DNA of 64,000 nt from an uncultured Clostridia bacterium (GCA_963558405.1 CAUWGC010000005.1:833-64832); one strand, 5' to 3'. Counted from the stretch's first letter, positions 7,356 through 62,519 are shown. Translations and numbers: made by a program. Notes: generated by a model not told the origin, from the letters alone.

Positions 7356-7360
7356 ATTTA

Positions 7361-10300: not shown

Positions 10301-11896
10301 TACTTTATAAACTGCATTTTCTAGTGTAGCATCTCCTTGTGCCATGCTTCCTGTTTCACTATCTTTTTTAATTATTTCAATAGAACCTTTTGGCTCTGTA
10401 TCAACTACTCCTTCAATTTTTAATTCTATAACTGGTGTAGTAGAATTAACATATTGAATATTAGCATTAAATATTGTTTCATTTAATAAATATCCTTTAG
10501 GTGCTTGTGTTTCATAAACTATATATTTACCTACTGGAATATCACTTAATGTTGCGACACCATCTGAATTAGATGTTATTTTAGCAACTACTTGTCCTTT
10601 AGAATAGAACTTTTTAGTTTTCGCAACATTATATATATCTTCATTTGCCTTTACTTCAAATTCTGCTCCTGCTATTTTATCATTATTTGTACTTACTTTA
10701 TAAATCTTTATTTGTCCAGTAGGTTCGTTATTTTTAAATGTTACACTAGCTGTTTGACCACCTGCTACATTAACTCTTTGAATACTTGTATCTAATAAAT
10801 AACCACTAGCAACTGATTCTTCTTTTACAAAATATGTACCAGGTTTTAGTTTTTCAATTAAAATTTTACCTTCATTATTTGTATTTGCTTTCTTTACTAA
10901 ATCAGTACATTCATTATTTCTATATAGACCAAAAACACAATCTGAAACTGCATTTCCCATATTATTTGTTTTTCTAATTTCTATTTTTCCACTTTCAACA
11001 TGAACTGAAACACTAAATGCTGATGGATCAACATAGTTAGAAAATATTAAGTTTTGAACACTACCTGAAGTAAATGTAAAATACATATAATTTGACATTG
11101 TAGAACTATTATATGCACTTCCATTTGGCATTAATTGATATAGCCCATATTCTCTTGAATTAAATGTTACATTTTCTACATTACAATTATCAGATATTGT
11201 TATTACTAAATCATTACTTCCTTGTGTATGGCTAAATGTTACTCCATCTTTTGATTGTGAAAATGATTGATATGCTGATAATTTTCCATTATTATCTGTT
11301 ATCACTTTTCTATCTCCAATAGCAACACTTTGTGTTGAACCATTAAAAGATGTATTTCCATGATACTGATTATAATATCCTTCAGCTTCTGCTACCCAAT
11401 TAGCATAGTGTCCTGATGACATGAAATTTCCATTCCATGAATCTCTTGGGAATGCATCAAATGAACTATTTATATTGTTATGTATATACTCCCATACATA
11501 TTGTTGAGTACAACATGCTGCTCTATATGCTTCATCTGATGATGGTAACCCTAAACCATATTTCATAGTATAACCAAAATATATCATTTCAGCTATTTTC
11601 TCGTATTGTGGTAAGTTTTGTTTATATTGAACATAAAAATCTCCGTTGAAAGTATATTCACTTCCGTTAGGAGATTTTACACCCTTTTGACAACAAAAAG
11701 CTATATAAGTTTGACCATCATAAGTAGCATAATGTAATTCGTGTCCTACTTTTGCTAAACTTCCTGATATTACACCAAATTGTGCATTTGAATTCATATC
11801 AGTAATAAATGCTGCAAAAGTATTAATTGGCAAAGATGTTAATAGCAATAATGCTAAACATATAATTGCCATAAATTTCTTTGTTTTACTTTTCAT
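7361..11896 (-). CDS. Cell-wall-anchored surface adhesin: signal peptide, thioester-domain-like N-terminal region, multiple Cna-B/SpaA-type repeats, C-terminal VPKTG sortase sorting signal
   Basis: Signal peptide MKSKTKKFMAIICLALLLLTSLPINTFAA. Cys (IAFCCQKG) and TQQYVWEY (TQxA-V-W-like) motifs typical of thioester domains. Repeated blocks GAEFEVKANEDIYNVAK..., EGAEIVVTDKDGNVIDSWTSTKE.... C-terminus EVPKTG + hydrophobic helix + KRKQNKDK. Confidence 0.8.
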   Translation of the reverse strand: MKSKTKKFMAIICLALLLLTSLPINTFAAFITDMNSNAQFGVISGSLAKVGHELHYATYDGQTYIAFCCQKGVKSPNGSEYTFNGDFYVQYKQNLPQYEKIAEMIYFGYTMKYGLGLPSSDEAYRAACCTQQYVWEYIHNNINSSFDAFPRDSWNGNFMSSGHYANWVAEAEGYYNQYHGNTSFNGSTQSVAIGDRKVITDNNGKLSAYQSFSQSKDGVTFSHTQGSNDLVITISDNCNVENVTFNSREYGLYQLMPNGSAYNSSTMSNYMYFTFTSGSVQNLIFSNYVDPSAFSVSVHVESGKIEIRKTNNMGNAVSDCVFGLYRNNECTDLVKKANTNNEGKILIEKLKPGTYFVKEESVASGYLLDTSIQRVNVAGGQTASVTFKNNEPTGQIKIYKVSTNNDKIAGAEFEVKANEDIYNVAKTKKFYSKGQVVAKITSNSDGVATLSDIPVGKYIVYETQAPKGYLLNETIFNANIQYVNSTTPVIELKIEGVVDTEPKGSIEIIKKDSETGSMAQGDATLENAVYKVFANEDIYNVAKSKKYYSKGDLVATRTMDKFGNTTPVEDLPLGKYIVKEDKASVGYLLDKTEYPVNLEYKDQHTKVIANKTTSNEDVKKMGVHIFKSGIKANSGETPGLEGAEFTIKLNSAVEKAYSQGYTYAEVWNGVDENGNKVNVDTKRVAEAQKIAPTYDVLVTDKDGNAYTQKNLPYGKYIVKETVTPKDYESASDFYFSITQDESEIKEIPQKTKHIVVNNEQLEAYIKLIKKDLKTGKVVTLTSTTFEIKAEKDIYDRATGKIIWKKGESISQKIGSTTYTSFTTNADNMIVPDKSFTNNKDDKGSVVTPLQLPVGSYAIYEIKTPKGFLQLEKPVTFEIKGIRDYDKDQDEDFIKEVLMKNEQPTGTLIINKTIALREDADTSLVDTSDLSGIEFKLTAKEDIIDYADGSKIYTKGQEIKKYNLDKKGNLKVDNLPMGTYELEETKTLDGLVLNWTKYEVKCEQKDLTTKVYEDIKDISNDTTMFEFSKKSVTGDDELEGAKLSVIDENNKVVDTWTSTKKTHKIEGLVVGKTYKLKEEIAPDGYVRASTIEFKVESTTKVQQVKMIDKIVTMTKADIGGKEIEGAEIVVTDKDGNVIDSWTSTKESHNINRIEEGKKYILHEEYAPDGYVVATDVEFEVTNKKDIQKVEMIDKIVEMSKVDIAGKEIEGATIQVLDKYNKVVDEWVSGKEPHKIKNLVEGETYTLHEEIVADSYVKATDVEFIVTPDKETQKVVMIDKLVEITKTDITNGNELEGAELEVIDEDGNTIDKWTSTKEPHKVKGLEEGKTYILKETTAPYGYEITEEIKFTVTNDKETQKIEMKDMPILKNVKVIKIDTETKEVIKDKFIFAIYEDPECTKLIKEVKSNSEDGTALFEELRYGTYYIKEIKAPKDYELSSKIVKVEINDKGIFVEDTQVEENENTIEFTFENKKIEVPKTGVESKIKLFAGSIILSLLGIAYIIIKRKQNKDK
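7620..8720 (-). repeat. Four tandem ~90-aa Cna-B-type coding repeats inside the adhesin gene
   Basis: Repeated peptide pattern E(L)EGA.(L/I).V.D..(G)N..D.WTSTKE.HKI..L.EG..Y.L.EE.APDGYV.AT..EF.V seen four times in the translation. Confidence 0.55.
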
Positions 11897-11974
11897 ATTT
11901 TTATCATCCTTTCATAAAAAATAAGCCTTAACTAAAAAATTAAAGCTTATAAATATAATTTATTTAATTTAATT

Positions 11975-12679
11975 TTATTTTATTGCCCAGAAATAGTATT
12001 TTCCACACAAACATTGACTTATTTTGTATTGAACAGAAGGCCATCCTTTTGTATAATTTTCAAAAGCAATTTGAGCTTCATTCCAACTCGAATAATATCC
12101 ATGTTCATTTGCCCCATCTCCTGCAATATGGTGAGTTCCACCCTCTGCACACCAATAATCTAAATCACTTGGTGTAGGCTCTTTTGTAACTTTATCTTTA
12201 CTTTTTTTCTCTTCTTGTACTCTTGTTCCATTCGTATCTTCATCGTTATTTTCTCTATTATCATTTGCATTATTTTCCAATACCGTATTAGACATTTGTT
12301 CTTTTTTTATAACATCATTTTCAATAGTTTTAGATTCTTCATTTTTATTAGTATTTTTTGCTATATTCTCTTGTCTAATAGTTGGATTTTTCTTTGGTTC
12401 TTCTTGAATACTTGTATTATTAACTTTTACAATATCCGCTTCTAAATGTGTTTTTTCTTCAATCTCTTGTTCTTCTACATTGTTTTCAACAGCAATCACT
12501 TCTGTATCTTCTTTTCCTTTGTCATCAGTATTATTTATTTCAGTTACAATCTCTTTCTCATTTTCCATTTTACTTAAACTTAAGGTCTTTGATTTTATAA
12601 TCATCATATTCGCAAATAATATCATTATTAAGGCTATAATTATTAAAACTAATATCTTTTTACTTTTCATTACTACCAT
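11975..12679 (-). CDS. Secreted or membrane-anchored hypothetical protein with low-complexity acidic linker and Cys-rich C-terminal domain
   Basis: N-terminal hydrophobic anchor KKILVLIIIALIMILFANMMII, long E/N/K-rich region, C-terminal DYWCAEGGTHHIAGDG...CLCGKYYFW. Confidence 0.5.
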   Translation of the reverse strand: MVVMKSKKILVLIIIALIMILFANMMIIKSKTLSLSKMENEKEIVTEINNTDDKGKEDTEVIAVENNVEEQEIEEKTHLEADIVKVNNTSIQEEPKKNPTIRQENIAKNTNKNEESKTIENDVIKKEQMSNTVLENNANDNRENNDEDTNGTRVQEEKKSKDKVTKEPTPSDLDYWCAEGGTHHIAGDGANEHGYYSSWNEAQIAFENYTKGWPSVQYKISQCLCGKYYFWAIK

Positions 12680-12828
12680 CTCCTTATAGCTTAATTATAT
12701 GCTTTTTAGAGATAAAAACAAATGTGTAAATTATTATAATATTATTAAATATATTTTATATAATAATTCTCTTTTAGTTTGTAATATAGTATATATTTAA
12801 AAGGGATTGTAAGGGAAAACTTTGTAAT

Positions 12829-12878
12829 GTGTTCACACAAACAAGTATAACTAAATATATCTAATTTTGTTCACACAC
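12829..12878. repeat. Two direct copies of (G/T)TGTTCACACA immediately 3-prime of parB; candidate partition or operator site
   Basis: gtgttcacacaaaca at 12829-12843 and ttgttcacacac at 12867-12878. Confidence 0.3.
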
Positions 12879-13828
12879 TATCTTGAATTTCTTTCTTGTT
12901 TTATTCGTTCTCGCCTAATATAATCTTGCACACATTGAATAATAAAATCTTCAACATTTCCAGATTCTTTAACTCTACTTGGAATATATTTTTCTATTTT
13001 TTCATTGTGTATCTTTATATATTCTTTTTGATTTGGCTTTTCCTGTTGTAGTATTTCTTCTATTTTTTCTTCTGTTAGGTTTCCTTCTTGTTCTAATTTC
13101 TTTAATCTTATTGCTTGACTTAAAGAAGGTGTTACCTCATCAAATTCAAATATATTTTCTACAACATATTGATTTTCTTCACTTAAATATGATAATTCTA
13201 CTGCTGGTCTAAAAGCTATTCTTTTGTTATCAACTTGTTCTAATAACTCTGGTATTAAATAAGTAAGTCGAATATATCTCTGTATAGTTCTTGCACTTTC
13301 TCCAACTTCTTCTCCCATTCTTTCTGCACTTTTTAACTTGTCGCCCAATGGTCGCGAAGTTATATCTTCTTCTAAATCAACTCTTTTCCCCTGATGTTTC
13401 ATAGCTTCAAGTTTCATTTTATATGCAAATGCTTTTTCACTAGGCAATATTTCTTCTCTTTGAATATTACTATCTACCATAAGAATTGTTGCCTCATCAT
13501 CAGTTAATTCTTTAACAATACATTTTATTTTATCTATTCCTGCAAGTTCACACGCTCTTTTTCTTCTATGTCCAGAAATCATTTGATAATTTCCTTCTCC
13601 TCGTTTTCTTACTATAACAGGTAATAAAACTCCATGTTCTTTTACACTTTTAACCATTTCTTCCATTTTATCATCATCTATAACTCTAAAAGGGTGGTCT
13701 GGAAATTCTCCTATTTTATATAGTTCTATTTCCTTTACCTCATCAACAACTGGATTATCTCTTTGTTCTTGACTTGTGAATAAATCATCTAACTTTGGAA
13801 GTACCATCTTTTTGTCTTGTTCTTTCAT
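12878..13828 (-). CDS. parB: ParB/Spo0J-family partition protein (conjugative-element type)
   Basis: ParB box ISGHRRKRACELAG with LPVIVRKRG upstream; start overlaps parA. Confidence 0.8.
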   Translation of the reverse strand: MKEQDKKMVLPKLDDLFTSQEQRDNPVVDEVKEIELYKIGEFPDHPFRVIDDDKMEEMVKSVKEHGVLLPVIVRKRGEGNYQMISGHRRKRACELAGIDKIKCIVKELTDDEATILMVDSNIQREEILPSEKAFAYKMKLEAMKHQGKRVDLEEDITSRPLGDKLKSAERMGEEVGESARTIQRYIRLTYLIPELLEQVDNKRIAFRPAVELSYLSEENQYVVENIFEFDEVTPSLSQAIRLKKLEQEGNLTEEKIEEILQQEKPNQKEYIKIHNEKIEKYIPSRVKESGNVEDFIIQCVQDYIRRERIKQERNSR

Positions 13829-14610
13829 TCTCTAATACCTCCTTTGCTAAATTATTGTATGCGTTTGCAACAGGACTATTTTTATCAAACTCAAATATAC
13901 TCTTTCCTGTTGATGTTGATTTTGCTGTATTTATTGCTTTTGGTATTTCAGCACCATATATTTTCACATATTGTCCATAATTGTCGATTAAAGTATCTCT
14001 TACATCTTTTGATAAATTTGTTCTTTTATCTACTAATGTAAGTAATACTCCACCTATTTTCAAATTAGGATTTATTTGTTTCTGCACTCTCGTAACTGTC
14101 TTTAATAAATGTCCCATTCCTTTTGCAGCCAGATATTCTCCCTGTACTGGAATTATTATCTTATCACTACAAGCCAGAGCATTTATTGTTATCATTCCAA
14201 GAGATGGCATACAATCTATCAATACATAATCATAGTTATCTTTAATATCTCTTATAGAATTTTTAAGTGTGAACTCTCTGCTCATTGCATTAACTAATGA
14301 AAACTCTATTGCTGATAAATCTAAATTAGCAGGAATTAAATCTATTCCTTCTTTATGATGAAGAATAGCATTTTCTGCATTTATTTCATTATCACATATA
14401 GTATCAGACATTAATGTTCCAATAGTATTCTGCAATTCATCTTGATTATAATAACCCATACAAGTAGTTAAATCTCCGTTGTGGATCTGCATCAATTAGT
14501 AATACTCTTTTTCCTTGTTTACTAAGTGCAACTCCTAAACTAAATGTAGTTGTTGTTTTTCCAACTCCACCTTTTTGATTTGCTATTGCAATTATCTGAC
14601 ACTTTCCCAT
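13785..14610 (-). pseudogene. parA: ParA/Soj-family ATPase interrupted by a +1 frameshift after the Walker A and DADPQ region
   Basis: The N-terminal ORF (ORF track 14446..14628) reads [44 protein letters not shown], then runs out of frame to a stop. The remainder, [20 protein letters not shown]..., is in the +1 frame (13785..14495). Deleting one nucleotide in the run ccacaacgg near 14480-14490 restores [13 protein letters not shown]. Likely start ATG at 14610 preceded by AAGGAG. Confidence 0.7.
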
Positions 14611-14630
14611 TCTTGCTCCTTTCCTCAAAA

Positions 14631-14660
14631 AAAGAGCTAACTCTTAAAAGCTAACTCTTG
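14631..14660. promoter_or_regulatory. Direct repeat AGCTAACTCTT x2 immediately upstream of parA; candidate ParA/ParB operator
   Basis: aaagAGCTAACTCTTaaaAGCTAACTCTTg just upstream of the parA RBS. Confidence 0.3.
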
Positions 14661-14670
14661 TCTTTAATAT

Positions 14671-15294
14671 TTATTCCTCTGTTATTTCTTTATCATCTTG
14701 TAAATGAGTAGAAACATATATAAACTCCTCATCATCTGCTAATTTACCAAATAAATTGTTAAGTCCTGCAATAAAAGGTTTTATATCTTCTTGAACATTA
14801 TAACTATATGAATAATTCAAATAGTATTCATTTAAATTATCATATAAAGGTACAATATTTACTAATCCTGGTCTTATCTTTTTTCTTAATATTACCCAAT
14901 TAGGTATATCGTCTTTTATAATATTAACAATTTTATCTTCAGAAATTAACATTCTCATAATTCCATTCATTATATCTGAAAAGTCTTTTTCTTCATCACA
15001 AAATATTTTATTCATCATAGCACTCATTGACCTTACAAAATCTGATAAGTAATCATCTTTTATACAAGCAAAGCAATCAGTTTCTATTTCATCTAAATAC
15101 CCTATTGCTGTTAAACACTCATAATAATTTGATGCCATAATATAATAAAATTGTTCAAATTCTTTCTTTAAGTTTCTTGAGTTCATCTTCTTTATATAAA
15201 TACCTGTCTCCTTTCTTATAATCTCTTTAATCTTTTCTGTTTCTTTTTTAATTTTTTCATTATTTTTTGGTTTGTTTTTTTCATTTTTTTTCAT
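14671..15294 (-). CDS. Hypothetical protein (207 aa), first gene after the queH terminator
   Basis: ORF with lysine-rich N-terminus; no recognisable motif. Confidence 0.5.
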   Translation of the reverse strand: MKKNEKNKPKNNEKIKKETEKIKEIIRKETGIYIKKMNSRNLKKEFEQFYYIMASNYYECLTAIGYLDEIETDCFACIKDDYLSDFVRSMSAMMNKIFCDEEKDFSDIMNGIMRMLISEDKIVNIIKDDIPNWVILRKKIRPGLVNIVPLYDNLNEYYLNYSYSYNVQEDIKPFIAGLNNLFGKLADDEEFIYVSTHLQDDKEITEE

Positions 15295-15319
15295 TTTCTT
15301 TTTACTCCTTCCTTTTTGA

Positions 15320-15356
15320 AGGCAAAATAAAAAATCTAATATTTCTATTAGATTTC
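15320..15356 (-). terminator. Rho-independent terminator downstream of queH
   Basis: Perfect palindrome AAATCTAATA-tttc-TATTAGATTT followed on the minus strand by TTTTATTTTG. Confidence 0.5.
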
Positions 15357-15394
15357 TTATATATGTTAGATATTATTTCAATAACTATAATATT

Positions 15395-16429
15395 TTATTT
15401 TTTCTTTAAATCTTTTGAATAATATATTAAATCAGTACAAGTTAATTCTCCATCTTTTATTTCTTCTTTATAATTATCTATAAAGAAATTTTTAATTGTT
15501 TTCTCATATTTATCAAATCCCTGCTTAACATAGAAAGGAATATTATTCTCTGTTGTTCCTACCAACATTCTGTCATATTTTTGTTTATAATTACCACATA
15601 ATGATTTTAAAAGTGTTTTTGCATAACCTTTATTTCTGTAATTTTCTTTTGTAACTATGTTCTTTAACTCTAATGTTTTTCTATCAATGTGCAAAATAAC
15701 TGCAATAGAAATTAGCTCATCTTCTTTTTTTAATGCATATACATCAGAATCGTTCAAATACTTATGTATCATGTCTTTTGAAGGATCTGCCTCTAAAAGT
15801 AAGTCTATATAATCTTCTTTATTTTCTATTTTTTTAACCTGCATTCTAGGTTCTTTTGGTATCTCGTAACCATTGGTATTAGTGGTTTGTATAGGATTGC
15901 GGTTATAATATCTCATCTCCTCAGAAAAAATACATCCACAATACTTTTGCCTATATAACCCTAACTCTTTTGCTTTTTCTTGTCCTTGTCTAAAGCCTAC
16001 TCTAAAATCTCTTTCTAAAAATTCTAATCCATACTTTAAAGCTATTTCTTTTCCTACTTTTATTATTCCTTCATGATTTTGGTATGGACTTACTAATAAA
16101 GTTGTTGTAATTGTGTCATATCCATGTTCTTTTGCATATTTAGCTGTTTGTTCTAATCTTATTTTATAACAATAGTTAATACATCTATTTTGTAAATCAT
16201 TTATTACATTTTTGCAAAAATTTTGCAAACCATATTCTTCTTCAAAAATTACATTTACTCCTACTGATGGTGCATATTCTTTTAATGTATCTCTTCTCAT
16301 TTTGTATTCAGTATAAGGATGTATGTTTGGATTGTACCAATATAATGTTGGTTCTATATTTTCTTTTCTTAATGCTTCTATGCAGTAAATACTACATGGA
16401 GCACAACATGTATGCATTAATAATTTCAT
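15395..16429 (-). CDS. queH: Epoxyqueuosine reductase QueH (DUF208) fused to a C-terminal GNAT acetyltransferase domain
   Basis: N-terminal HTCCAPCS cysteine motif and YWYNPNIHP typical of QueH. C-terminal ~150 aa carry RNKGYAKTLL (GNAT motif A) and YVKQGFDKY. Confidence 0.7.
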   Translation of the reverse strand: MKLLMHTCCAPCSIYCIEALRKENIEPTLYWYNPNIHPYTEYKMRRDTLKEYAPSVGVNVIFEEEYGLQNFCKNVINDLQNRCINYCYKIRLEQTAKYAKEHGYDTITTTLLVSPYQNHEGIIKVGKEIALKYGLEFLERDFRVGFRQGQEKAKELGLYRQKYCGCIFSEEMRYYNRNPIQTTNTNGYEIPKEPRMQVKKIENKEDYIDLLLEADPSKDMIHKYLNDSDVYALKKEDELISIAVILHIDRKTLELKNIVTKENYRNKGYAKTLLKSLCGNYKQKYDRMLVGTTENNIPFYVKQGFDKYEKTIKNFFIDNYKEEIKDGELTCTDLIYYSKDLKKK

Positions 16430-24613: not shown

Positions 24614-25802
24614 TTATTTTAAAACTTCATCTAACACCTTTGCTAAATATTTCATGCTAATCATAGTTTCTTCTAGTGTGTTTCCGGTTGCACCGACTTC
24701 TATAATACTTGCTGCTTTTCCTAAGTTTTGATTATATCTAGAATTTCTTACCATTATTGGTTTAAATAGTCCTGGATATAATTCATTTGCCTTTTTAACT
24801 ACTTTTACAGCAAAGCTTAAATTTTGTATCCAATTAGGATGATATAATCCACCTCCATTTGTTCCTATTACAAACATTAATTGTGCCGCATATTCATCGC
24901 CTATTTTTACTTTTGGTGCATATGTATTATCTCCTACAGCATCTCTATGTAAATCTATTATAATATCTACATCAGGATTTGATTTTAGCTCATTTTCTAC
25001 TGATGTGTAAGAACGGTCATAAGAACCATTGTAAGCAGGATAATCATGATAATTTTGATTGTGTATTACTTGCCTTCCTTGTTCTTCTAAGTATTTTTTT
25101 AATTCCATTCCATTTCTAGCTACTGAATGATTTAAATCTATTGTTCTAAAAGTACCGTGATGATTGATATTCATAGCCGGGACTTGGCGTGTAACTTTCA
25201 CAAGTATGTGTATGAAATAACAATATTTTATTTTTATTAACTTGTATATTCATATCTAGCATGTCTTCTGTTATAGTATTATCTGATTCATTTTTTATAT
25301 TAACACCATAACAAGTCATTGTATATTTATTATTTGCTGTATTATTTTCTGTAACAACTTCTGTTGGTAGTCCTGTTTTAGCTTCTTCAATTTTTTCTTG
25401 CTCTTGTTTTTCTTCTTGCTTTTCAGGTATATCTTCCACTTTTGTTTCAACTTCTTCCGTTTCATCTTTTTTTATATTTTCCGTCATAGCGAGTCCTACT
25501 GTCATAATTTTTAATAATGGAGATTCTTTTTCTTCCATTATAGCCTCATCTTGCATTATTTCCTTATTTTTGTCTTGTATAATTTTTATGCCTGGGACAA
25601 CACGTTCAAAGCAAAAAAAATATGGTTCTTTTACGTTATTTTTGGTTTCTTCCTTTACTTTTTCAATATTAGATGTAATTTCTTCTTTTTCATTATTATT
25701 ATTTAAAAATCTAGTAAGCCCAAATATAGAAAATACTATTATCATTACACTTACTAGATATTTTACTAAATCTTTAATATTAACAACCGTAATATTTAAC
25801 AT
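24614..25802 (-). pseudogene. spoIIP: Stage II sporulation protein P, split by a frameshift near 25146-25201
   Basis: Upstream ORF (25146..25802) has the TM anchor and LLFHTHTCESYTPSPGYEY, then runs out of frame to a stop. Downstream ORF (24614..25201) carries HGTFRTIDLN...IIIDLHRDA, the SpoIIP C-terminal region, in another frame. Confidence 0.7.
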
Positions 25803-47964: not shown

Positions 47965-49428
47965 TCATTCCACCGGTGCATAATCATCCGTCAAATACTG
48001 TCCTAAAGTATCACTTATCTTTCTTTCATTACTTAATAATTCCTTATACTCTGCACTTTCTTCTAATTCAAAATTCCCCTTTTTGCTTCCAACCAATATA
48101 AAATTTTGCTTTCTATTTATATCTATGTTAGGTGCTACTTGATACACAAGTACTGTTGGAAATACTTTTTTATATGTTTCGTATTCCATTTTTAAGAATT
48201 CAGAATCTTTTCCTTCTAAAGAACCTAAAATATTTGTGATAACCACTCCATTGTCTGTTAATGCTTGACTAATTTTATTGGTAGCTTCCAATGTTGTTAA
48301 CTCAAATGGAACACTTAATCCTTTAAATGCATCTACAAATATTGCATCATATTTTTTTGAACAAGAATTCAAGTATGTTCTTCCATCTTGATGATAAATA
48401 CCTAGCCTTGGATTTTCTTGTAATTCAAAATATTCTTTTGCAAGTTCTGTCATTTTTTTATCTATTTCTACAACATCTATTGTATTATTAGGATATTTTT
48501 CTAAATAATGCCTGGGATATGTATAAGCCGCTCCTCCTATTAATAGAGTATTTTTAGCTTCATTATTAAAATATTTAAACAAATCATAATACTCTAAATA
48601 TTTAGCTCCCATCTTTTTTGTTTCTTCATCTATATATGATTCTAAACCCGTATCTACCTGTAGCATTTTATATGTTTTTCCATTAATTTCTTGTTTTTTT
48701 ATCCATATTCTACTGTATTCTGAATCTGTATCTAATATTATATCTGGATTTTCTTGTTTAAATATATATCTTCCAAGGTACAATAAAGTAAGTATACAAA
48801 TTATACAAACTAATACATAACAATAATATTTTTTAGTTTTATTTTCATATATAAAAATTGCTAAAAGTAATAAAATAATAGTAAGTCCTAATATGATATT
48901 TTTAACACCTAAGTTTGGAATTAAAACAAATCCTGATAAAAATGTTCCTACTATACTTCCTAAGGTAGAAAATGCTGATAATTTTCCAGATGTTTTTCCT
49001 ATATTTTCTGTTCCTACTTCTTTTAATCTTATTGCATATGGAGAAATTGTTGCTAATAAAAAACTTGGAATTGCAAATACAAGTAAACTGCTTAATATTG
49101 CTACAATTCCTAGGTTAGGTATTAGTAAAGCTAATTGTTTTATAACGCTTGTTTCCAATATTGGAATAAAACTTGTTAATATTGCAGATAGCAATATTAT
49201 ATTAGAAAGTAAATTCCTTTTTGGTGTTTTATCTGCTAATTTTCCTCCATACCAATATCCCAAACTCATACTAATTAATATTACCCCAATAATACTTGTC
49301 CAAATAACGTTTGAGCTTCCTACATATGGTGAAAGTACTCTTGCTGCAATTAATTCTAATACCATAATTGCAGCACCACATATAAATACAATAATTTCTA
49401 ATATGTACTTTTCTATTTTTTGTTTCAT
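47965..49428 (-). CDS. Spermidine-synthase-like protein fused to an N-terminal polytopic membrane domain
   Basis: About 7 TM helices then aminopropyltransferase fold (IGGAAYTYPRHYL...VVEID...YDAIFVDAF). Confidence 0.75.
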   Translation of the reverse strand: MKQKIEKYILEIIVFICGAAIMVLELIAARVLSPYVGSSNVIWTSIIGVILISMSLGYWYGGKLADKTPKRNLLSNIILLSAILTSFIPILETSVIKQLALLIPNLGIVAILSSLLVFAIPSFLLATISPYAIRLKEVGTENIGKTSGKLSAFSTLGSIVGTFLSGFVLIPNLGVKNIILGLTIILLLLAIFIYENKTKKYYCYVLVCIICILTLLYLGRYIFKQENPDIILDTDSEYSRIWIKKQEINGKTYKMLQVDTGLESYIDEETKKMGAKYLEYYDLFKYFNNEAKNTLLIGGAAYTYPRHYLEKYPNNTIDVVEIDKKMTELAKEYFELQENPRLGIYHQDGRTYLNSCSKKYDAIFVDAFKGLSVPFELTTLEATNKISQALTDNGVVITNILGSLEGKDSEFLKMEYETYKKVFPTVLVYQVAPNIDINRKQNFILVGSKKGNFELEESAEYKELLSNERKISDTLGQYLTDDYAPVE

Positions 49429-50026: not shown

Positions 50027-51589
50027 TTATATTTTTTCTATAACTATATTTCTTCCTTTTTTATTTTTCTCTATCTCATCAGCTCTATATGAGCATATTT
50101 TGTATTGGTTTAAATTATCAAATCTTATTATTACAGCTTTAGTATAATGATTTTCTTCTGATGGTGGATTTTCTTTAATTATAATACTTGCTTTAGTTTG
50201 ATTTAGTGTTTCAAATGTTGTCATAAATCCTATACCACTTCCACCTGTATCTTTGTGTGTAGTAATAGGCTTAGTACCTAATTTTACTAGTGTTCCAATT
50301 TCGAACTCTATTCCTGTGTCGTAAATACATAATTCATACTTTTTGTTTTTTACTCCCAATATTACAAAGATTTCTCTATTATTATTTTTAGAACTATTTA
50401 CTGCAATTATAGCATCTCTAATATGATCACCTATCATTGTTTCTAGTTTATTTTTAGGTATTATATTGTTTACTAAATAATATATGTTTCCAGAAATTTT
50501 TAAATTAAATTCAATATTATTGTCATAACACTCCTTTTGCATATATTTAAACATATTATCTATTTCTTGTATTCCGGTAACTTCTAACTCGGGTAATGTT
50601 TTTATATCCTTAATTTTTTGAGAATATTCATTTGTTAAATCTTGTATTTTATTTAATAAACTTAATTCTTCTGCAGTTTCAGTTTTCATATTTTCTTTTA
50701 CAAACATTTCTAATGCTTTTTGCCTATTATAGAACTCATGAGTAATTTTGCTAATATTGTACTTTTCCGCTTCTAAGTCTTGGATTTGGAGATTTTGCTG
50801 TTTTATTGTTTCTTCATATTCAAATAAAGCATCATTTAATAATTTTTGTTTATAATACATTGTTAGTGTCTTATAAATTATTATACACATTGTAAAAGCT
50901 AATATAAAAAATGTAATTAACAAATTCTTTCTTATTTCTTCTATACTTTCGAAAATAGTTCCAAGTAAGCATGTAATTAATATTATCGCTATACTGATAT
51001 TAATTAAGACAATATCTGCAAAATCACTATTAAACTTTTGTTTTATAAAATCTAATCCGTTTTTTATTTTTCTTATTCTTACTAACAAATATAAAAATAT
51101 AAATTGTAAAAGTAATATAAAGAATGTATTAATGTATAAATTTTCAACTTTAAATACTATATAAGGAAAATATAATGTTAATGTACTTATAACTAAACAT
51201 ATAGAACAAATAGCATATGAAATTATCACTATAACTAATGTATTTCCTATTTTCTCTTTAAACAACCAACTTAATATGTTTACATATACTAATCCCGCAA
51301 TTACAACGGATAATAATGAACTAACATTAAATTCAATATACATACAAATAAATGTAACTATTATGTTTAACACATAAATTAAAATTTTTCTCTTTATATT
51401 ATCATACTTTATGTTTGATAATTTTTTAAAAGAATAATATACATATAAATTCATTATAAATGTTTTTAAATAATATATACTTATGTATTTTTGATTATCC
51501 ATATTTCTCCTCGCTAATAGTATTATTATATATAAAAAAAATGCAATAATCAATATAATATGTTTTTTTAACAATATTCTTTTGATCAT
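50027..51589 (-). CDS. Polytopic sensor histidine kinase, AgrC/HPK10-like
   Basis: 6-7 N-terminal TM helices, H-box-like ISKITHEFYNRQ, G-box GGSGIGFMT at the C-terminus. Confidence 0.65.
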   Translation of the reverse strand: MIKRILLKKHIILIIAFFLYIIILLARRNMDNQKYISIYYLKTFIMNLYVYYSFKKLSNIKYDNIKRKILIYVLNIIVTFICMYIEFNVSSLLSVVIAGLVYVNILSWLFKEKIGNTLVIVIISYAICSICLVISTLTLYFPYIVFKVENLYINTFFILLLQFIFLYLLVRIRKIKNGLDFIKQKFNSDFADIVLINISIAIILITCLLGTIFESIEEIRKNLLITFFILAFTMCIIIYKTLTMYYKQKLLNDALFEYEETIKQQNLQIQDLEAEKYNISKITHEFYNRQKALEMFVKENMKTETAEELSLLNKIQDLTNEYSQKIKDIKTLPELEVTGIQEIDNMFKYMQKECYDNNIEFNLKISGNIYYLVNNIIPKNKLETMIGDHIRDAIIAVNSSKNNNREIFVILGVKNKKYELCIYDTGIEFEIGTLVKLGTKPITTHKDTGGSGIGFMTTFETLNQTKASIIIKENPPSEENHYTKAVIIRFDNLNQYKICSYRADEIEKNKKGRNIVIEKI

Positions 51590-51615
51590 TGCATTATCTT
51601 AATTTTATTTTAATA

Positions 51616-51657
51616 TTATCTTAACCAAAAAGCTAACCATTCCCAGAAACTCATCAT
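51616..51657 (-). CDS. Candidate 13-aa mini-ORF MMSFWEWLAFWLR with strong SD, between the regulator and kinase genes
   Basis: GGGAGGTGA 8 nt upstream of ATGATG; TAA stop; located after the regulator-gene terminator and 26 nt upstream of the kinase start. Confidence 0.3.
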   Translation of the reverse strand: MMSFWEWLAFWLR

Positions 51658-51692
51658 GAGAATCACCTCCCGGATATTTTTTACAATAAAAA

Positions 51693-51725
51693 AATATCAC
51701 TTATACGTGCTTGTATAAGTGATAT
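51693..51725 (-). terminator. Rho-independent terminator downstream of the response-regulator gene
   Basis: ATATCACTTATAC-gtgcttg-GTATAAGTGATAT perfect 13-bp hairpin followed by TTTTTTTATTG on the minus strand. Confidence 0.5.
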
Positions 51726-51775
51726 TGGGAAGTGCAATTTTGTTACATTTTTTTATTTTTTATTCTATAAAATGA

Positions 51776-52600
51776 CTATATCTCCTTTTTTATTTTATCT
51801 GCATAGTAATATATTAATTCTGTTGGGGTTGGTACGCCTGTTTCGTAGTTTATTCTTGCTGTATAGTATTTGGTTAAATCTTCTATTGCTGATATTCTCC
51901 ATGCATGAAGTATTGCATTTTGCATTGCTCTACTTATTGTACTATTTGATTTTTTATATTTACCTACTAAATATTGTATTATTGATATTTTATTGTATTT
52001 TTCTTCATTTTTTATAATAAAGAAAATAGAGTCAAATAAGTATTTTCTTCCTTGCAAGTGTGAACTTATTCCTATTAATTCTAATTCTTTATTTATCTTT
52101 TCTGCTATTATGTCATCTTTATTATCTATATCAGTTTCAATTTCTGTAACTGTATTACTTGTTTCATATTCTCTTAATAGAACAATGGTATCTATTATTT
52201 TGTTTTGTGAGTAGTTTGTTTGTTTTTTATAAAAGATAAAATCTATTTTATTTCTATGACAAAAATTATATACAGAGTCTGAATACACATTTGTTGTTAC
52301 AACAATGTTAGGAATTTTATTTAATTTTAGCTTTTTGAATTTCTCTATAAAGTCAAATCCACTACCTTCTCCATCTGTTAATTCTAAATCTAAAATAATA
52401 GCATCTGGTTTATATTTATTAACACATTCTATAGCTTTTATTGAAGAGTTTGTAATTGCTACTAAATTAAAATCGTTTCTTTTTTGACTAAGATTTTTAT
52501 AAATATTACATTCGTTTACATCATCTTCTATTAGTAAAATATTTATTGGATTGCTATTCATATTTTTACCACCTTTTGTATTTTTGTCATATTTTATCAT
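51776..52600 (-). CDS. Response regulator with receiver domain and Spo0A-type C-terminal DNA-binding domain (Spo0A paralogue). Probable true start at 52561 (MNSNPINILLIEDD, RBS AAAGGTGG)
   Basis: REC motifs ILLIEDD ... DAIILDLELTDGEG. C-terminus ISSHLQGRKYLFDSI...SRAMQNAILHAWRIS...TPTELIYYYADKIK aligns with the remembered Spo0A C-terminal signature (GYLYLREAI...SRVERAIRHAIEVAWSRG...KPTNSEFIAMVADKLR). Confidence 0.75.
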   Translation of the reverse strand: MIKYDKNTKGGKNMNSNPINILLIEDDVNECNIYKNLSQKRNDFNLVAITNSSIKAIECVNKYKPDAIILDLELTDGEGSGFDFIEKFKKLKLNKIPNIVVTTNVYSDSVYNFCHRNKIDFIFYKKQTNYSQNKIIDTIVLLREYETSNTVTEIETDIDNKDDIIAEKINKELELIGISSHLQGRKYLFDSIFFIIKNEEKYNKISIIQYLVGKYKKSNSTISRAMQNAILHAWRISAIEDLTKYYTARINYETGVPTPTELIYYYADKIKKEI

Positions 52601-52708
52601 ATTTTGTAATTGTTTTCCATGTTTTATGCAGTAATATTATTCACTTCTGGAGTTATTTGATTATTTAAAATATATTTATATTTGTTTGTAGAAATAGGAG
52701 TTTTGTTA

Positions 52709-53023
52709 ATGAAAAAAGCAATTGGAAAAAGAATTAAAGAAATTAGAGAAAATATGGGAATGACTAAAGAAAGTTTTGCAAAGGAACTTGGAATATCTGG
52801 TCAATATTTAGGAATTGTAGAACATGGAAAAAGTTATTTATCCATTGAAAAGCTAAAAGTTCTTTGTGACTTTACAAATTTATCTGCAGATTATATTTTG
52901 TTTGGAAGAGATAATAATCTTATTAGTGATATGCAAAAAATATTATCTGAATTTTCTCCTGAGCAAATAGAAATTGGTTGTGATACCCTTAAAAAATTAG
53001 CACTTTTTATAAAAAATCAATAA
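52709..53023 (+). CDS. XRE-family helix-turn-helix transcriptional regulator
   Basis: MKKAIGKRIKEIRENMGMTKESFAKELGISGQYLGIVEHGK; ATG at 52709 with AGGAG 8 nt upstream. The ORF-track start at 52682 is a TTG. Confidence 0.8.
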   Translation: MKKAIGKRIKEIRENMGMTKESFAKELGISGQYLGIVEHGKSYLSIEKLKVLCDFTNLSADYILFGRDNNLISDMQKILSEFSPEQIEIGCDTLKKLALFIKNQ

Positions 53024-53059
53024 TTTCGAAAGTAATAGTTTGTTTTGAAAATATTATAT

Positions 53060-53088
53060 TGACACTCACTACTCCTTTTGGTAAAATA
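53060..53088 (+). promoter_or_regulatory. Sigma-A-like promoter TTGACA-N17-TAAAAT with TG extension
   Basis: attgacactcactactccttttggtaaaat seen directly. Lies inside the ORF-track call 53059..53424, whose listed start is a TTG. Confidence 0.4.
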
Positions 53089-53115: not shown

Positions 53116-53424
53116 ATGAGTAATTTTATGTTGAAAAAAATACAGAATTTTTTGTTTTGTTTTAAAAAATCCAATAGTATAACAAATATAAACCCTACAA
53201 GTAGTACTAATATTTTAGAATTGCAAACTCAAATAGATACATGGAAAAAAAATGCTAATGAAATACAGTCATCTTTTGATTTTGATATTCCCAATTATAT
53301 ATTAGATGAACTTATTAAAAAAAGAAAACACTTAAATTGTAGTCATGATAATCTTTATTATTTATTAAATTGTGCTGTTATGAATGGTAAATTATCTAGA
53401 ACTAATGCAAATAAAATAAAATAA
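53116..53424 (+). CDS. Hypothetical small protein (start uncertain)
   Basis: Open frame followed by a strong terminator; first ATG after the candidate promoter at 53116; no good SD. Confidence 0.35.
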   Translation: MSNFMLKKIQNFLFCFKKSNSITNINPTSSTNILELQTQIDTWKKNANEIQSSFDFDIPNYILDELIKKRKHLNCSHDNLYYLLNCAVMNGKLSRTNANKIK

Positions 53425-58812: not shown

Positions 58813-60276
58813 CTATTGTACATGATTTAAATCATATTCAAATATTTTTTGACCATCTGTAGTTGTTAGTTTTAAATAATATATTTTACCTTTAAAATTA
58901 TTAGCATCTTGCCAATAACTTTTTCCAATATAATTTTGTGTTCTATCTATACCTCTTATTGGCGTAATTGTCTTAAACATTTCACCTGAGCCATCTCCAC
59001 TTTTTTTATTTCCATTAATCATTATTTCAGAATAATATTTTGCCCAAAAGTTTGTATCCATGTTAATAGAAATATTAACTTTTTGGTTTACTGGAGTAGT
59101 ATTATCAGAATAGTTTGTATGATATACTAGTAATTCTTTTCCACCTTGCGCCTCAAATTTAATTTTATTATCAACCATTTGAATGATTATATGACTTTGA
59201 CCAACACCTGATGAACTTAATCCATTACCTAATGTTAATAATCCCATATTTGCATCTTTTTCTTCTATATTAACTATAGCTTCAATTTTCATTCCATTTT
59301 TCCAGCTAAAATTTCCACTTATAGTTGGGAGCTGTACAAAATCATCAATTCCATCAAGTTGAATTGCACAGTTATTTTCTTCATCTCTAATAATTTTAGC
59401 TCCACTAATCAATTTACCATGATAATTGTTTCCTGAATAATCAATAATATTATCGTTTAGGACCTCTATTTTTAACACCTTTTTGACTTTAATAGGCTTT
59501 TCTAAATTTATTTCTAATTCTACTGTCTCTGAACTCAAGCTTTTTCCATTTTTAACTTTTAATTGTAAATCCGCTTCTTTTATTTGCTTTTCTTTTCCTT
59601 TAATTGTCCCCTTATAATTTTCTTGAGTTAGATTAATATTTTCAATAACTACATCTAACGATGATTTTTCTTTATCTTTCAATTCAATTTCATATACTAT
59701 ATCTTCATATGTAATATCTTCATTTTGATAATTTTTTAATGTTAATTTAATACTGCTTTCCATACTTAAGTCTAATTTTATATTATCTTTATCTATATGT
59801 GATGTAAAATATAGATTTATTGGAATATCTCCTATTCCTTTTAATTCAGAAATAAATATTTCTTTAAATTCTTTATCTATATAAGTTAGCTTTTCACCTT
59901 TTAAGGAATAATAGTCACCCGCATCCGTTGTTCCATACCCTTTTTCTAATCCTCTTAAATTAAATTTTTCTAAATTTAATTTATAATCATATTCTATATA
60001 TCCTTCATTAAATAGTTGAGTAGTTGCATTAATTTTATTTTCTGAAGTTTCGTTATAATGTTTTACATAATTTGAATCTATTTTACCTATTACAGCTTCT
60101 TTAACTGTTGCATATTCGTTTTTTATTATTGCATCTTTTGTACGATAAAATAAAGACTCATCTCCTACTACTAAATTCATTATTGCCGATGATAAAATTA
60201 ATAAAATAACTATAGTTATTACAAGAGCAACCAATGTAATTCCTTTCATCTGTTCTTCTCTTTTTGTGATTTTCAT
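58813..60276 (-). CDS. Pilin-like N-terminus plus LamG (concanavalin-A-like) domain protein
   Basis: N-terminus MKGITLVALVITIVILLILSSAI resembles a type IV prepilin leader and hydrophobic helix, but position 5 is Ala rather than Glu. C-terminal NNYHGKLISGAKIIRDEENNCAIQLDGIDDFVQLP is LamG-like. Confidence 0.55.
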   Translation of the reverse strand: MKITKREEQMKGITLVALVITIVILLILSSAIMNLVVGDESLFYRTKDAIIKNEYATVKEAVIGKIDSNYVKHYNETSENKINATTQLFNEGYIEYDYKLNLEKFNLRGLEKGYGTTDAGDYYSLKGEKLTYIDKEFKEIFISELKGIGDIPINLYFTSHIDKDNIKLDLSMESSIKLTLKNYQNEDITYEDIVYEIELKDKEKSSLDVVIENINLTQENYKGTIKGKEKQIKEADLQLKVKNGKSLSSETVELEINLEKPIKVKKVLKIEVLNDNIIDYSGNNYHGKLISGAKIIRDEENNCAIQLDGIDDFVQLPTISGNFSWKNGMKIEAIVNIEEKDANMGLLTLGNGLSSSGVGQSHIIIQMVDNKIKFEAQGGKELLVYHTNYSDNTTPVNQKVNISINMDTNFWAKYYSEIMINGNKKSGDGSGEMFKTITPIRGIDRTQNYIGKSYWQDANNFKGKIYYLKLTTTDGQKIFEYDLNHVQ

Positions 60277-60452: not shown

Positions 60453-61124
60453 TTATTGGAATTTTGTTATATCATTTATTTTTCCTGCAAAATATGGATT
60501 GTTTTTTCCCTTTTCTATTAAAAATATTGCAAAAGTATCATCTAACGCAAATTCTCTAATTTCATCATCTCTTATTGCTGCTGTATTTTCTACTGACATT
60601 CCAGCTTCACTTTTTATTTTTCCTCCAGTTTTATCTAGTTCAAATTCTATAGTTTGAACGGCTTTTTCTATTTCATATTCATCTCCATTTGAAAAGAAAA
60701 AAGTTTTATTTTGCAATTCTGTAAATTCATTTTTTTCTTTTAGTTTTATATTTGGAATTTTTAATAATTCTCCTTCTTTAAAATATTTTTCTTTCTTATA
60801 ACTTGTAGCTTTGCTTAAAATATTTTGATATATCTGGTTAAAAGTATTACCTTCTGGTTTTTTACATAGTATAACTTCATCTTCTTGTTTTGTTTTTAAT
60901 TTTATGCCAAAGTCATCTTTTGAATTATAATATAAAACCTGAACTTGTTTTCTTATTTCTTCATTTTCACTATCCTTCTTTATTCCAAAGTAAGTTACAT
61001 TATCATAATTAGCAAATTTTCCTTTTTCTAATTCTTCAAATGTTTTTTCAAACTCAAATTCTTTTTTCAACATAGCATATAAAAAGTAATCTTTAGGATT
61101 ATTATTCCATTCAAAACTATCCAA
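60453..61124 (-). CDS. Protein with serpin-like C-terminal region. Frame is open upstream to 61330 with no ATG; the ORF-track start is a TTG
   Basis: C-terminus KAVQTIEFELDKTGG...FALDDTFAIFLIEKGKNNPYFAGKINDIT parallels the serpin hinge and C-terminal signature (KAVLTIDEKGTEAA...[24 protein letters not shown]). Upstream in-frame peptide contains DIIFSP. Confidence 0.45.
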   Translation of the reverse strand: MDSFEWNNNPKDYFLYAMLKKEFEFEKTFEELEKGKFANYDNVTYFGIKKDSENEEIRKQVQVLYYNSKDDFGIKLKTKQEDEVILCKKPEGNTFNQIYQNILSKATSYKKEKYFKEGELLKIPNIKLKEKNEFTELQNKTFFFSNGDEYEIEKAVQTIEFELDKTGGKIKSEAGMSVENTAAIRDDEIREFALDDTFAIFLIEKGKNNPYFAGKINDITKFQ

Positions 61125-61607: not shown

Positions 61608-62519
61608 TTATTTAGACGTTTTTTTCTTTCTTTTTAGTTGGTATTTTGTTAAATAAATGGAAAATATTATTGTAATTATTAAAAATACTGCTGAAAAGCT
61701 TAGTATCGCTATACTATAATAATTGATATTAACTACTTGTTCTGTAACTATTGTTTCTTTATCTATACTTTCTTCATGTATTTCATTTATTATATTTTCA
61801 ACTTTTTCTTGTGTAGTATTTTGTCGCTCTTCATTTTCATTGTTATTTTCAAATTCGCCATCACCTTTTATTGTATTATCATCTGCATAATCTACTGTAC
61901 TATTCGTTAGTTCTGTGTCCATATTAGCAGCATTTTTAGGTACTAATAATGTTTTTACTCCAATAAAAAATGTAATTATAAACATTCCTAAGTTAGTTAA
62001 TAATATTTTTAATGTATGTACAGCTTTATAATATCTCCATTTTATGGTAGCTATTGGTTCATTTAATATATTAGCTATATCTTTAAATGATAAGTTTCCT
62101 ATTATTTTTAAAGAAACAATTTCTTTTTCTTTATCGTTTAATTTTTCTATTAATTTATTGTAACTATAATTGTTTACTATGTTATCTATTTCGTTGTTAG
62201 TATCTTCTATATCATATATTAAATCAATATCTATCATATTAGTTTTCTTTCTAAGTAATGTAATTGATTCATTTTTTGTTACAGTATATAACCAACTTGC
62301 TTCATTTTTATTTGGAAGTTTGCTTTTATCCATTTTGTATATTTTTGAAAATACTATTTGTACCACATCTTCAGAATCTTCTTTATTTTTTAATATTGTA
62401 AAAGCAATTTTGAAAATTAGCTTATTATAGTTCTCATATAATTTTTTAAAACTATTTTCTTTATTATTTTTTAAACTATTGATTGTCTCTTTTAAATCTT
62501 CTTTATCAATATTTACCAT
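61608..62519 (-). CDS. ECF-type sigma-70 family factor with C-terminal two-TM extension (membrane-tethered sigma or sigma/anti-sigma fusion)
   Basis: Region 2 (VQIVFSKIY...ASWLYTVTKNESITLLRKK) and region 4 (LSFKDIANILNEPIATIKWRYYKAVHTLK) are followed in the same frame by TM helix GMFIITFFIGVKTLLV, a 65-aa acidic segment and a second TM helix YYSIAILSFSAVFLIITIIFSIYL. Confidence 0.65.
   Translation of the reverse strand: MVNIDKEDLKETINSLKNNKENSFKKLYENYNKLIFKIAFTILKNKEDSEDVVQIVFSKIYKMDKSKLPNKNEASWLYTVTKNESITLLRKKTNMIDIDLIYDIEDTNNEIDNIVNNYSYNKLIEKLNDKEKEIVSLKIIGNLSFKDIANILNEPIATIKWRYYKAVHTLKILLTNLGMFIITFFIGVKTLLVPKNAANMDTELTNSTVDYADDNTIKGDGEFENNNENEERQNTTQEKVENIINEIHEESIDKETIVTEQVVNINYYSIAILSFSAVFLIITIIFSIYLTKYQLKRKKKTSK

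Follow-up and report, generated by a model that had tools for sequence, protein, structure and literature searches.

A candidate peptide-pheromone two-component cassette with a Spo0A-type response regulator in uncultured gut Clostridia

Reviews of two-component quorum sensing describe response regulators of the OmpR, LytTR, NarL, Lux, and NtrC types, none of them with a Spo0A_C domain, and place AgrC and ComD in the LytTR family with a HATPase_c_5 domain (PMC8895600). Spo0A_C has been treated as unique to Spo0A (Davidson et al., 2018; PMC6136694), and the two or three uncharacterized spo0A paralogues of some Clostridiales genomes have been mentioned in passing (Galperin et al., 2022; bioRxiv 10.1101/2022.02.25.481979). 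The locus described here lies in a 64,000-nucleotide stretch of DNA from an uncultured Clostridia bacterium (GCA_963558405.1, CAUWGC010000005.1:833-64832), hereafter called the window. On its minus strand, a response regulator (RR; 51776-52561) with a Spo0A_C output domain and a polytopic histidine kinase (HK; 50027-51502) flank a 13-codon micro-open reading frame (micro-ORF; 51616-51657), whose tryptophan-rich product diversifies together with the sensor domain of the kinase. We consider it somewhat probable that this locus is a self-contained peptide-pheromone two-component circuit with a Spo0A-type output. No prior description of the cassette was found in the literature, and its proteins carry only the public names "response regulator" and "hypothetical protein"; the micro-ORF is too short for gene callers, and the system as a whole is therefore unannotated.

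The agr system (AgrB-AgrD-AgrC-AgrA) of staphylococci, listeriae, and clostridia resembles the cassette in three respects: (i) a small peptide gene beside a kinase of six to seven transmembrane (TM) helices without a large extracellular domain; (ii) a hypervariable block over the peptide and the N-terminal sensor half; and (iii) a likely autoinduction logic. In contrast to agr, the cassette has no AgrB, no cysteine or thiolactone, a peptide without leader or tail, a kinase without HATPase_c_5, a regulator with Spo0A_C and not LytTR, an insulated unit for each gene, and an extra XRE-family gene. In the ComQXPA system of Bacillus, whose signal is Trp-dependent, the peptide gene varies together with the N-terminal membrane domain of the kinase, giving polymorphic pherotypes. 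The cassette shares this co-variation of a peptide gene with the membrane domain of a polytopic kinase, but has no ComQ prenyltransferase, a precursor of 12-18 aa as opposed to about 55 aa, and Spo0A_C where ComQXPA has NarL. Systems of the ComCDE, BlpRHC, and Pln type likewise combine an unmodified linear peptide with an adjacent polytopic kinase and have allelic peptide and receptor variants; the cassette differs from them in lacking a double-glycine leader and a C39-peptidase ABC exporter, and its RR is not of the LytTR type. The ComS/XIP-ComR and SHP-Rgg systems of streptococci use hydrophobic, Trp-containing peptides of 17-24 aa without a classical signal sequence, which are encoded beside the receptor and are often unannotated. 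The likeness lies in a very short, Trp-containing ribosomal peptide encoded beside its receptor; however, those peptides are re-imported and act on cytoplasmic receptors of the RRNPP/XRE-TPR kind, whereas the cassette has a membrane kinase and a 104-aa XRE protein without TPR. Spo0A itself, with its sporulation kinases and phosphorelay, is matched by the full-length arrangement of a receiver (REC) domain and Spo0A_C, and the phased promoter repeats of the cassette are reminiscent of tandem 0A boxes. The RR differs from Spo0A in scoring below the equivalog cutoff, in having a dedicated adjacent kinase where Spo0A is an orphan regulator fed by orphan kinases, in occurring in multiple copies, and in its changed recognition helix.

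On these grounds the cassette is classified as a peptide-sensing two-component system assembled from new parts. More tentatively, and with confidence falling a little short of even, it may represent a new class of Gram-positive signaling, defined by a leaderless, probably unmodified, Trp-rich ribosomal peptide of 12-18 residues, an unclassified 7-TM HK family, a large family of Spo0A_C paralogues, and pherotype exchange in uncultured gut Clostridia, where it possibly gates Spo0A-like developmental or colonization programs.

The cassette was followed through 67 species-level loci, retrieved from collections of metagenome-assembled genomes (MAGs) with one genome per species. Their sources are the guts of humans, mice, rabbits, and ruminants, and the records are labeled Clostridia bacterium, Clostridium sp. 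CAG:780 or CAG:245, with a few Lachnospiraceae and Oscillospiraceae. In the gene order, a small conserved reading frame (orfX) and a gene resembling XRE repressors come first, and the RR, the micro-ORF, and the HK follow on the opposite strand. In nearly all loci an XRE helix-turn-helix (HTH) gene of 102-113 residues diverges from the RR gene, which is followed by the HK gene after a gap of usually 200-440 bp. RR and HK are coupled in essentially every locus, which supports the pairing of the regulator with a polytopic membrane kinase in the initial annotation of this DNA. It had also placed the regulator directly upstream of the kinase; the order of the genes holds, but they are not adjacent, as a terminator, the 13-codon gene, a second terminator, and a promoter intervene. 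Across genomes the module is found in unrelated genomic contexts, and in some it is tandemly duplicated. One contig filed under "Bacteroidaceae bacterium" (locus L026, CAVFFR010000008.1) carries a typical module that is 96-97% identical to that of locus L037 in RR and kinase core, and is probably mis-binned.

The micro-ORF encodes the putative signaling peptide MMSFWEWLAFWLR. Its DNA (minus strand, 51657-51616) reads ATG ATG AGT TTC TGG GAA TGG TTA GCT TTT TGG TTA AGA TAA after GGGAGGTGA, with the Shine-Dalgarno (SD) sequence GGGAGGTG read at 51664-51671 and a second ATG at 51654, and the tryptophan-rich product has 12-13 residues. It is the only SD-preceded micro-ORF with at least two Trp codons in the 64-kb window, and 0 of 200 shuffles give one with at least three. 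Equivalents of 12-18 codons are present in about 60 modules, always with an SD of the form GGAGGTGA or GGTGGTGA ahead. The 63 peptides collected comprise 59 distinct sequences, typically MSFWEWLAYWLK, MSFWEWIRYIMGI, MSWEEIWKIIERIMGA, MWEWLMKTLSYWCG, and MSLYEAFLRWLNKWI. Trp is their commonest residue (174 occurrences, initiator Met excluded), Cys is almost absent, and the net charge is mostly 0 to -2. Among the 25 peptides that start with M-x-F-W-E-W-L/I, the coding sequences differ mainly at third codon positions (AGT/AGC, TTT/TTC, GAA/GAG). Such a pattern is the signature of selection on the protein, and argues that the micro-ORF is coding. The suggestion in the initial annotation of a peptide- or signal-triggered circuit is strongly reinforced by this conserved peptide gene and by its co-diversification with the sensor. 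A peptide that is amphipathic, Trp-rich, and leaderless and that co-varies with a sensor could also be mainly antimicrobial or membrane-active (bacteriocin-like, or like a phenol-soluble modulin), with the HK and RR sensing it for autoinduction or immunity, as NisK does with nisin. We regard this as quite improbable: the peptides are very short and mostly not cationic, and the module has no conserved association with genes for immunity or ABC transporters.

Co-diversification was examined in 60 aligned modules (1770 pairs), with the HK split into a TM part and a cytoplasmic part. Mean pairwise identity is 30% in the TM part of the HK, as against 53% in its cytoplasmic part and 56% in the RR. 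In the 20 closest pairs (cytoplasmic core more than 80% identical), peptide identity rises with the identity of the TM domain (Spearman rho 0.82, a value reached by 0 of 5000 label permutations), and it does not do so with that of the cytoplasmic domain (rho -0.22) or of the RR (rho -0.21). The same relationship is visible in individual pairs. For instance, loci L037 and L050 share 93-100% DNA identity over 5.5 kb, but only 61-88% from the micro-ORF to the end of TM7, and their peptides are MSWEEIWKIIERIMGA and MSWDEIWKILEHILGL, respectively; the pair L007/L008 has the same block pattern. In such near-identical genomes, the differences are confined to a block of roughly 0.8 kb that begins at the peptide gene and ends with TM7. 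The reverse pattern is seen in L007/L024, where the peptides are identical and the TM domains 98% identical, while the flanks are only 86-96% identical. In one rabbit MAG (Lapin-022__bin89), two loci (L049 and L066) have downstream flanks that are 100% identical and RRs that are 96% identical, yet TM domains only 27% identical and different peptides; these are probably two co-existing strain alleles assembled from one gut sample. Discrete replacement of a block, together with the sharing of alleles across backgrounds, cannot be the product of mutation in place. Because the block is replaced as a whole and one allele is found in diverged backgrounds, peptide and sensor appear to form a single specificity unit. 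The same block pattern is that of the agr groups and of the pherotypes of ComX or competence-stimulating peptide.

The kinase start is most likely at 51502 (491 aa) and not at 51589, since the homologue consensus begins there, and the ATG at 51589 lies inside a terminator stem and upstream of the conserved HK promoter. Its hypervariable sensor domain (50864-51502, minus strand) has seven TM helices in the model, and the positive-inside rule applied to the loop charges predicts an N-out orientation. By the same reading the external loops have 4-11 residues, as in a polytopic sensor without an extracytoplasmic domain. The cytoplasmic half (50027-50863) comprises a dimerization and histidine phosphotransfer (DHp) domain, with the His codon at 50738-50740, and a catalytic ATP-binding (CA) domain. 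In an AlphaFold model based on 35 homologues (mean predicted local distance difference test score 76), about seven TM helices are accompanied by a long His-bearing helix, another DHp helix, and a CA domain of the alpha/beta type. In Foldseek, the cytoplasmic half resembles DHp-CA kinases such as HK853, CpxA, and YycG with a probability of 1.0, and H284, the G1 box (D424/G426), and the G2 box (G450/G452/G454) are invariant in the 35 homologues. On the other hand, the window protein has no significant Pfam match (HATPase_c, E = 0.006), 24 of the 35 members have weak matches to HATPase_c only, and none of the 35 matches HATPase_c_5 or HisKA. A profile of the family run against the sequences of the Protein Data Bank (PDB) finds nothing significant, the best match being the sporulation kinase KinB (E = 0.068). 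The HPK10- or AgrC-like label originally given to the kinase thus describes its architecture and fails on its catalytic domain; AgrC ranks 41st in the fold search, behind the HisKA-type kinases HK853, CpxA, and YycG, and the partner regulator is not of the LytTR type. By its modeled fold and motifs, the protein is a 7-TM histidine kinase, and its family is unannotated. Two further proteins of 487 aa in the window were considered and set aside: the one at 58813-60276 is unrelated to the HK, and the one at 47965-49428 carries a Spermine_synth domain.

The RR gene (51776-52561, minus strand) encodes 261 aa, and its start is most likely at 52561, as in the homologues, rather than at 52600, because the upstream ATG is 5' of the -10 element of the conserved promoter. 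The protein consists of a receiver domain (Pfam Response_reg, 35.6 bits) and a Spo0A_C domain (57.4 bits, E = 1.7e-15, cutoff 25) that covers positions 1-104 of the 104-position profile, and its closest relatives of solved structure by sequence are the Spo0A C-domains 1FC3 and 1LQ1. The receiver and Spo0A-type domains named in the initial annotation are thus both present, and so is the proposed divergence from canonical Spo0A: against the NCBIfam equivalog model for Spo0A (TIGR02875), the RR aligns over its full length but scores 90.3 bits, with a cutoff of 200. The phospho-acceptor residues E12, D13, D14, D58, T89/T90, and K112 (261-aa numbering) are invariant in 30 homologues. A fold search with the whole RR model was dominated by REC-domain matches and was uninformative on the C-domain. 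Searched exhaustively with HMMER, 1.84 billion cluster representatives yielded at least 147 clusters (50% identity, E <= 1e-30) that belong to the RR family. The best 150 matches listed form a smooth series, mostly of proteins of 250-290 residues, and ten representatives sampled across them all score 70-117 bits on TIGR02875. Because there are at least 147 clusters and all ten sampled members fall below the cutoff, the family is, on profile scores, large, old, paralogous, and distinct from Spo0A. The putative recognition helix STISRAMQNAILHAW, which aligns with SRVERAIRHAIEVAW of Spo0A, is strongly conserved across the family (K-K-S-N-S-T-I-S-R-A-M-Q-N-A-I-L-H-A-W-R, compared with T-T-A-S-R-V-E-R-A-I-R-H-A-I-E-V-A-W in Spo0A); several aligned positions differ, and the changed positions include those at which Spo0A has E, R, and H. 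Spo0A_C, which is held to be the signature of the sporulation master regulator, would here be the output of a large separate family with its own kinase and peptide.

The full-length alignment to the Spo0A model, together with KinB as the best, non-significant sequence match of the HK in the PDB, might suggest that the RR is the only, fast-evolving Spo0A of the organism and the HK its sporulation kinase. This is very improbable in view of the distance from the equivalog cutoff across the sampled family, the tandem duplicates and variable contexts of the module, and the conserved recognition helix that is not that of Spo0A. The module is also not in a spoIVB-spo0A context; its neighbors in the window are a flavin reductase, a spermidine-synthase-like membrane protein, the XRE gene, and a P-type ATPase. 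Only about 10 kb of sequence was available around each retrieved locus, and the representative search for spo0A returned paralogues only. Two further observations concern the RR and sporulation. The RR matches the phage family phrog_37855 (function unassigned in PHROGs) over its full length with an E-value of 1.3e-17, and phage-encoded proteins with REC and Spo0A_C domains therefore exist, while no relatives of the RR were found in a viral contig collection. A frameshift near 25150-25200 breaks a spoIIP homologue in the window (24614-25802, minus strand; Pfam SpoIIP, E = 1.8e-51) into a pair of overlapping open reading frames (ORFs), the two frames reading …SPGYEYQSS* and …HHGTFRTIDLN…; this is either an assembly error or the decay of a sporulation gene, and it bears on whether the lineage still sporulates.

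The intergenic DNA around the micro-ORF is occupied by RNA structures and promoter-like elements, all on the minus strand. After the RR gene, a scan of 49.9-53.6 kb found a single terminator-like site, hairpin P2 (51693-51726), with a 14-bp stem and a T-run that resemble an intrinsic terminator. Of 63 modules, 92% have a hairpin with a free energy (dG) of -8 or lower ahead of the peptide start; most of these hairpins have a T-run and differ in stem sequence, and in a few loci the best such hairpin is a separate one further upstream. The anti-SD segment directly 5' of P2, CACTTCCC (51727-51734), pairs in RNAfold predictions with the SD of the micro-ORF (helix P1), and the anti-SD:SD helix is predicted in most of the 30 loci folded. 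In an alignment of 30 sequences, 86% of the P1 and P2 cells are paired, compared with 32-48% when the partners are slid; 50 cells are doubly changed, compared with 18 in shuffles (0 of 500 reach the observed number). For instance, at column pair 26/101 in P1, 14 sequences have U-A and 11 have A-U, according to whether the SD is of the GGAGG or the GGTGG type. The 3' arm and T-run of P2 also contain TGATATTTT (51691-51699), a match to TGnTATnnT, a motif that 61 of the 63 modules have ahead of the peptide ATG, mostly at a distance of 39-58 nt. Its T, G, TAT, and T columns are invariant in the 30 sequences, though their pairing partners are often unpaired, and the element is proposed to be the extended -10 promoter of the peptide gene. 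Transcripts starting from it would begin past the anti-SD segment and the P2 hairpin and hence would be translated, while read-through from the RR gene would be terminated, or silenced at translation by the hairpin and the anti-SD:SD helix.

A second terminator hairpin with a T-run follows the micro-ORF (51533-51594; arms 51594-51582 and 51553-51541; RNAfold), with a median dG of -19.6 over 55 modules. It overlaps a promoter of the form TTGATT-17-TATAAT (51525-51553; 10 of 12 consensus positions) that would serve the HK gene. Of 60 modules, 55 contain the pattern TTGA[TCA][TAG]-N16-18-TA[TAGC][AT][AT]T, usually in the form TTGATT...TATAAT, and in 85% of those 55 at least five of the six bases of the -35 hexamer are paired inside the hairpin. 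The overlap of terminator and promoter, with the -35 TTGATT in the second hairpin and TGnTATnnT in the P2 arm and T-run, recurs across dozens of species. The RR gene has a putative promoter of its own (52591-52619), with -35 TGGAAA, a 17-nt spacer, and the extended -10 TGaTAAAAT, and most loci have an equivalent TGnTAnnnT at a distance of 25-50 nt ahead of the RR start. The RR, peptide, and HK genes thus each appear to be a separate transcription unit. Promoters embedded in terminators, combined with anti-SD insulation, would be an example of how a 13-codon gene is kept silent against read-through. An Rfam scan of 49-54 kb at E <= 1 returned nothing. A Trp-codon-rich micro-ORF upstream of the HK and flanked by hairpins also invites comparison with a regulatory leader, an upstream ORF that would control HK expression by attenuation or translational coupling and whose product would be functionless. 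Attenuation is ruled out by the strong terminator and the separate near-consensus HK promoter that sit between the micro-ORF and the HK in 55 of 60 modules, and the constraint on the peptide at the amino-acid level and its co-diversification with the sensor domain speak against a functionless product, making a leader of this kind extremely improbable.

Candidate operators accompany the promoters of the RR and the peptide. Over the -10/+1 region of the RR promoter lies a pair of tandem boxes with 10-bp phasing, TGATAAAATATGACAA (52584-52599, minus strand); TGAYAA-N4-TGAYAA has no other match in the 64-kb window. Across loci, boxes of the TGAYAA type form 16 pairs at a distance of 10 bp and 7 at 20 bp (0.1 expected in each case), and those of the TGTMR type form 27 pairs at 10 bp (0.7 expected). 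Upstream of the peptide gene, a box TGTAACAAAA can be read from the sequence at 51738-51747 (minus strand), and the corresponding region in other loci contains two to four direct repeats with 10-bp spacing. A single operator consensus was sought and could not be defined, as the cores vary by clade (TGAYAA, TGTMR, ACAAAA, TTGCAT), and possibly in orientation too. Direct repeats in helical phase are characteristic of binding by response regulators, and for this reason the repeats are provisionally assigned to the Spo0A-like RR; the XRE protein is the alternative. The proposal that the RR could act on 0A-box promoters finds no support, given the family-specific recognition helix, the different repeat cores, and the absence of a canonical 0A box (TGNCGAA) from 49.9-53.6 kb. 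Elsewhere in the window, one canonical core (TGTCGAA) with a second TGTCG 10 bp away occurs inside a giant ORF (TGTCGAAATATGTCG; 3893-3907, minus strand). The relaxed tandem 0A-box pattern shows no enrichment across the window (3 matches, 1.9 expected), and this case may be due to chance.

These components suggest how the circuit could operate. The Trp-rich peptide would be made from its own tiny insulated transcription unit and would leave the cell. The HK encoded beside it would then recognize the peptide with the outer part of its 7-TM sensor; the pairing of peptide and sensor is shown by co-diversification, and direct binding is presumed. The HK, made from its own near-consensus promoter, would autophosphorylate on the conserved His and pass the phosphate to the REC domain of the RR, as the intact motifs and the strict linkage of the two genes suggest. 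The Spo0A_C domain may bind the phased repeats that precede two extended -10 promoters, that of the RR gene and that of the peptide gene. Such binding would activate both genes and close an autoinduction loop, and the domain presumably has further targets elsewhere. The two terminators and the anti-SD:SD helix would stop read-through of the RR gene from yielding peptide, the divergent XRE protein would probably set the off state, and peptide-plus-sensor alleles would be swapped between strains as a block, giving rise to specificity groups (pherotypes). If the peptides are indeed pheromones, they would be cheap to synthesize and would provide experimental handles on communication, strain discrimination, and possibly the control of growth or sporulation in abundant uncultured gut Clostridia; the system would also supply compact orthogonal peptide/receptor pairs for synthetic biology in anaerobes.

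Several observations weigh against a secreted pheromone and the circuit built on it. Chief among them is that export lacks an explanation: the 63 peptides have no leader, no signal sequence, no double-glycine motif, and almost no Cys, and genes for an exporter, a protease, or a modification enzyme are neither present in the module nor conserved nearby. The coupling of peptide and TM domain is a signal among close relatives only, since over all 1770 pairs the partial correlation is 0.06 after controlling for the other domains, a loss attributed to saturation. The HATPase_c scores of the HK are under the Pfam threshold, and its N-box helix has the motif G-D-H-[IL]-R-D-A-I with no clearly aligned invariant Asn. 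A sigma-70 consensus scan found the AT-rich window (22-31% G+C) no richer in sites than shuffled sequence, and the promoter calls, like the operator assignments, consequently depend on conservation across loci. Lastly, although the predicted external loops are the most variable segments, which speaks for the circuit, the outward gradient of variability in the sensor is modest. In 13 close pairs with divergent peptides, the share of positions that differ is 63.5% in external loops, 52% in outer TM halves, 44% in inner TM halves, 44% in cytoplasmic loops, and 7.6% in the cytoplasmic kinase core, with loops and TM halves assigned from the model helices in the 7-TM, N-out orientation; by segment, 35-79% of the positions of the TM domain differ, compared with 7-8% in the core.

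Variability over the whole TM block and not its outer half alone, the missing export and processing features and neighboring transporter, and the tandem copies of the module within one genome would all suit a peptide that is not secreted and that modulates its own kinase inside the producing cell, in the cytoplasm or the membrane, with alleles serving to insulate paralogous modules from one another. We hold this to be unlikely, although it deserves serious consideration. Different alleles in near-identical genomes, and one allele in diverged backgrounds, fit discrimination between cells better, and 12-18 residues are too few to span the membrane. The tandem copies themselves also speak to the question. 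In three loci (L001, at 10001-15754, L010, and L011) the first copy has just 9-25 bp between RR and HK and lacks the peptide gene, the terminators, and the HK promoter, while its HK is intact and 80% identical to that of the second, peptide-bearing copy. These peptide-less first copies are possibly "listener" receptors. Strain-level replacement of alleles and the "listener" copies favor intercellular signaling, without amounting to proof of it. A different arrangement is found in three loci from Oscillospiraceae and Ruminococcus MAGs (L067, L068, and L072), where the RR is 35-39% identical, the RR-HK gap is 2-59 bp, and there is neither a micro-ORF nor a divergent XRE gene; the pairing of this kinase with Spo0A_C is therefore wider than its peptide-bearing version.

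The remaining genes of the cassette lie on the plus strand. The XRE-family HTH gene (52709-53023; 104 aa; Pfam HTH_3, E = 7.8e-11) is listed as an ORF with a TTG start at 52682, and the ATG at 52709, which is preceded by AGGAG, is the likelier start. Its divergent counterparts across loci are 40-80% identical, and its closest solved structures are the HTH domains of PezA, ImmR-type, and controller proteins. PADLOC returned generic HTH matches only, with no tie to a defense system. Downstream of it, a small conserved ORF of about 102 aa, orfX (53116-53424), has homologues of 38-53% identity at the matching position in at least 14 loci, and no match in Pfam, PHROG, or PDB. Ahead of orfX is a promoter-like site, TTGACA-17-TAAAAT with an upstream TG (53059-53087), which is the best sigma-70-like site of the region by consensus scan.

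Other parts of the window contain genes of separate interest. At the left end (1-14495, minus strand), an ORF of more than 1766 codons runs from about 5300 down to position 1 and off the stretch. A 1511-aa surface protein with a thioester domain and SpaA repeats is encoded at 7361-11896, and ParB/ParA genes at 12878-14495; all of these genes could be part of an integrated conjugative or mobile element. Toward the right end, a 223-aa ORF (60453-61124, minus strand) weakly matches serpins in their C-terminal part, and a 303-aa protein of the sigma-70 family (61608-62519, minus strand) has regions 2 and 4 and a long C-terminal extension.

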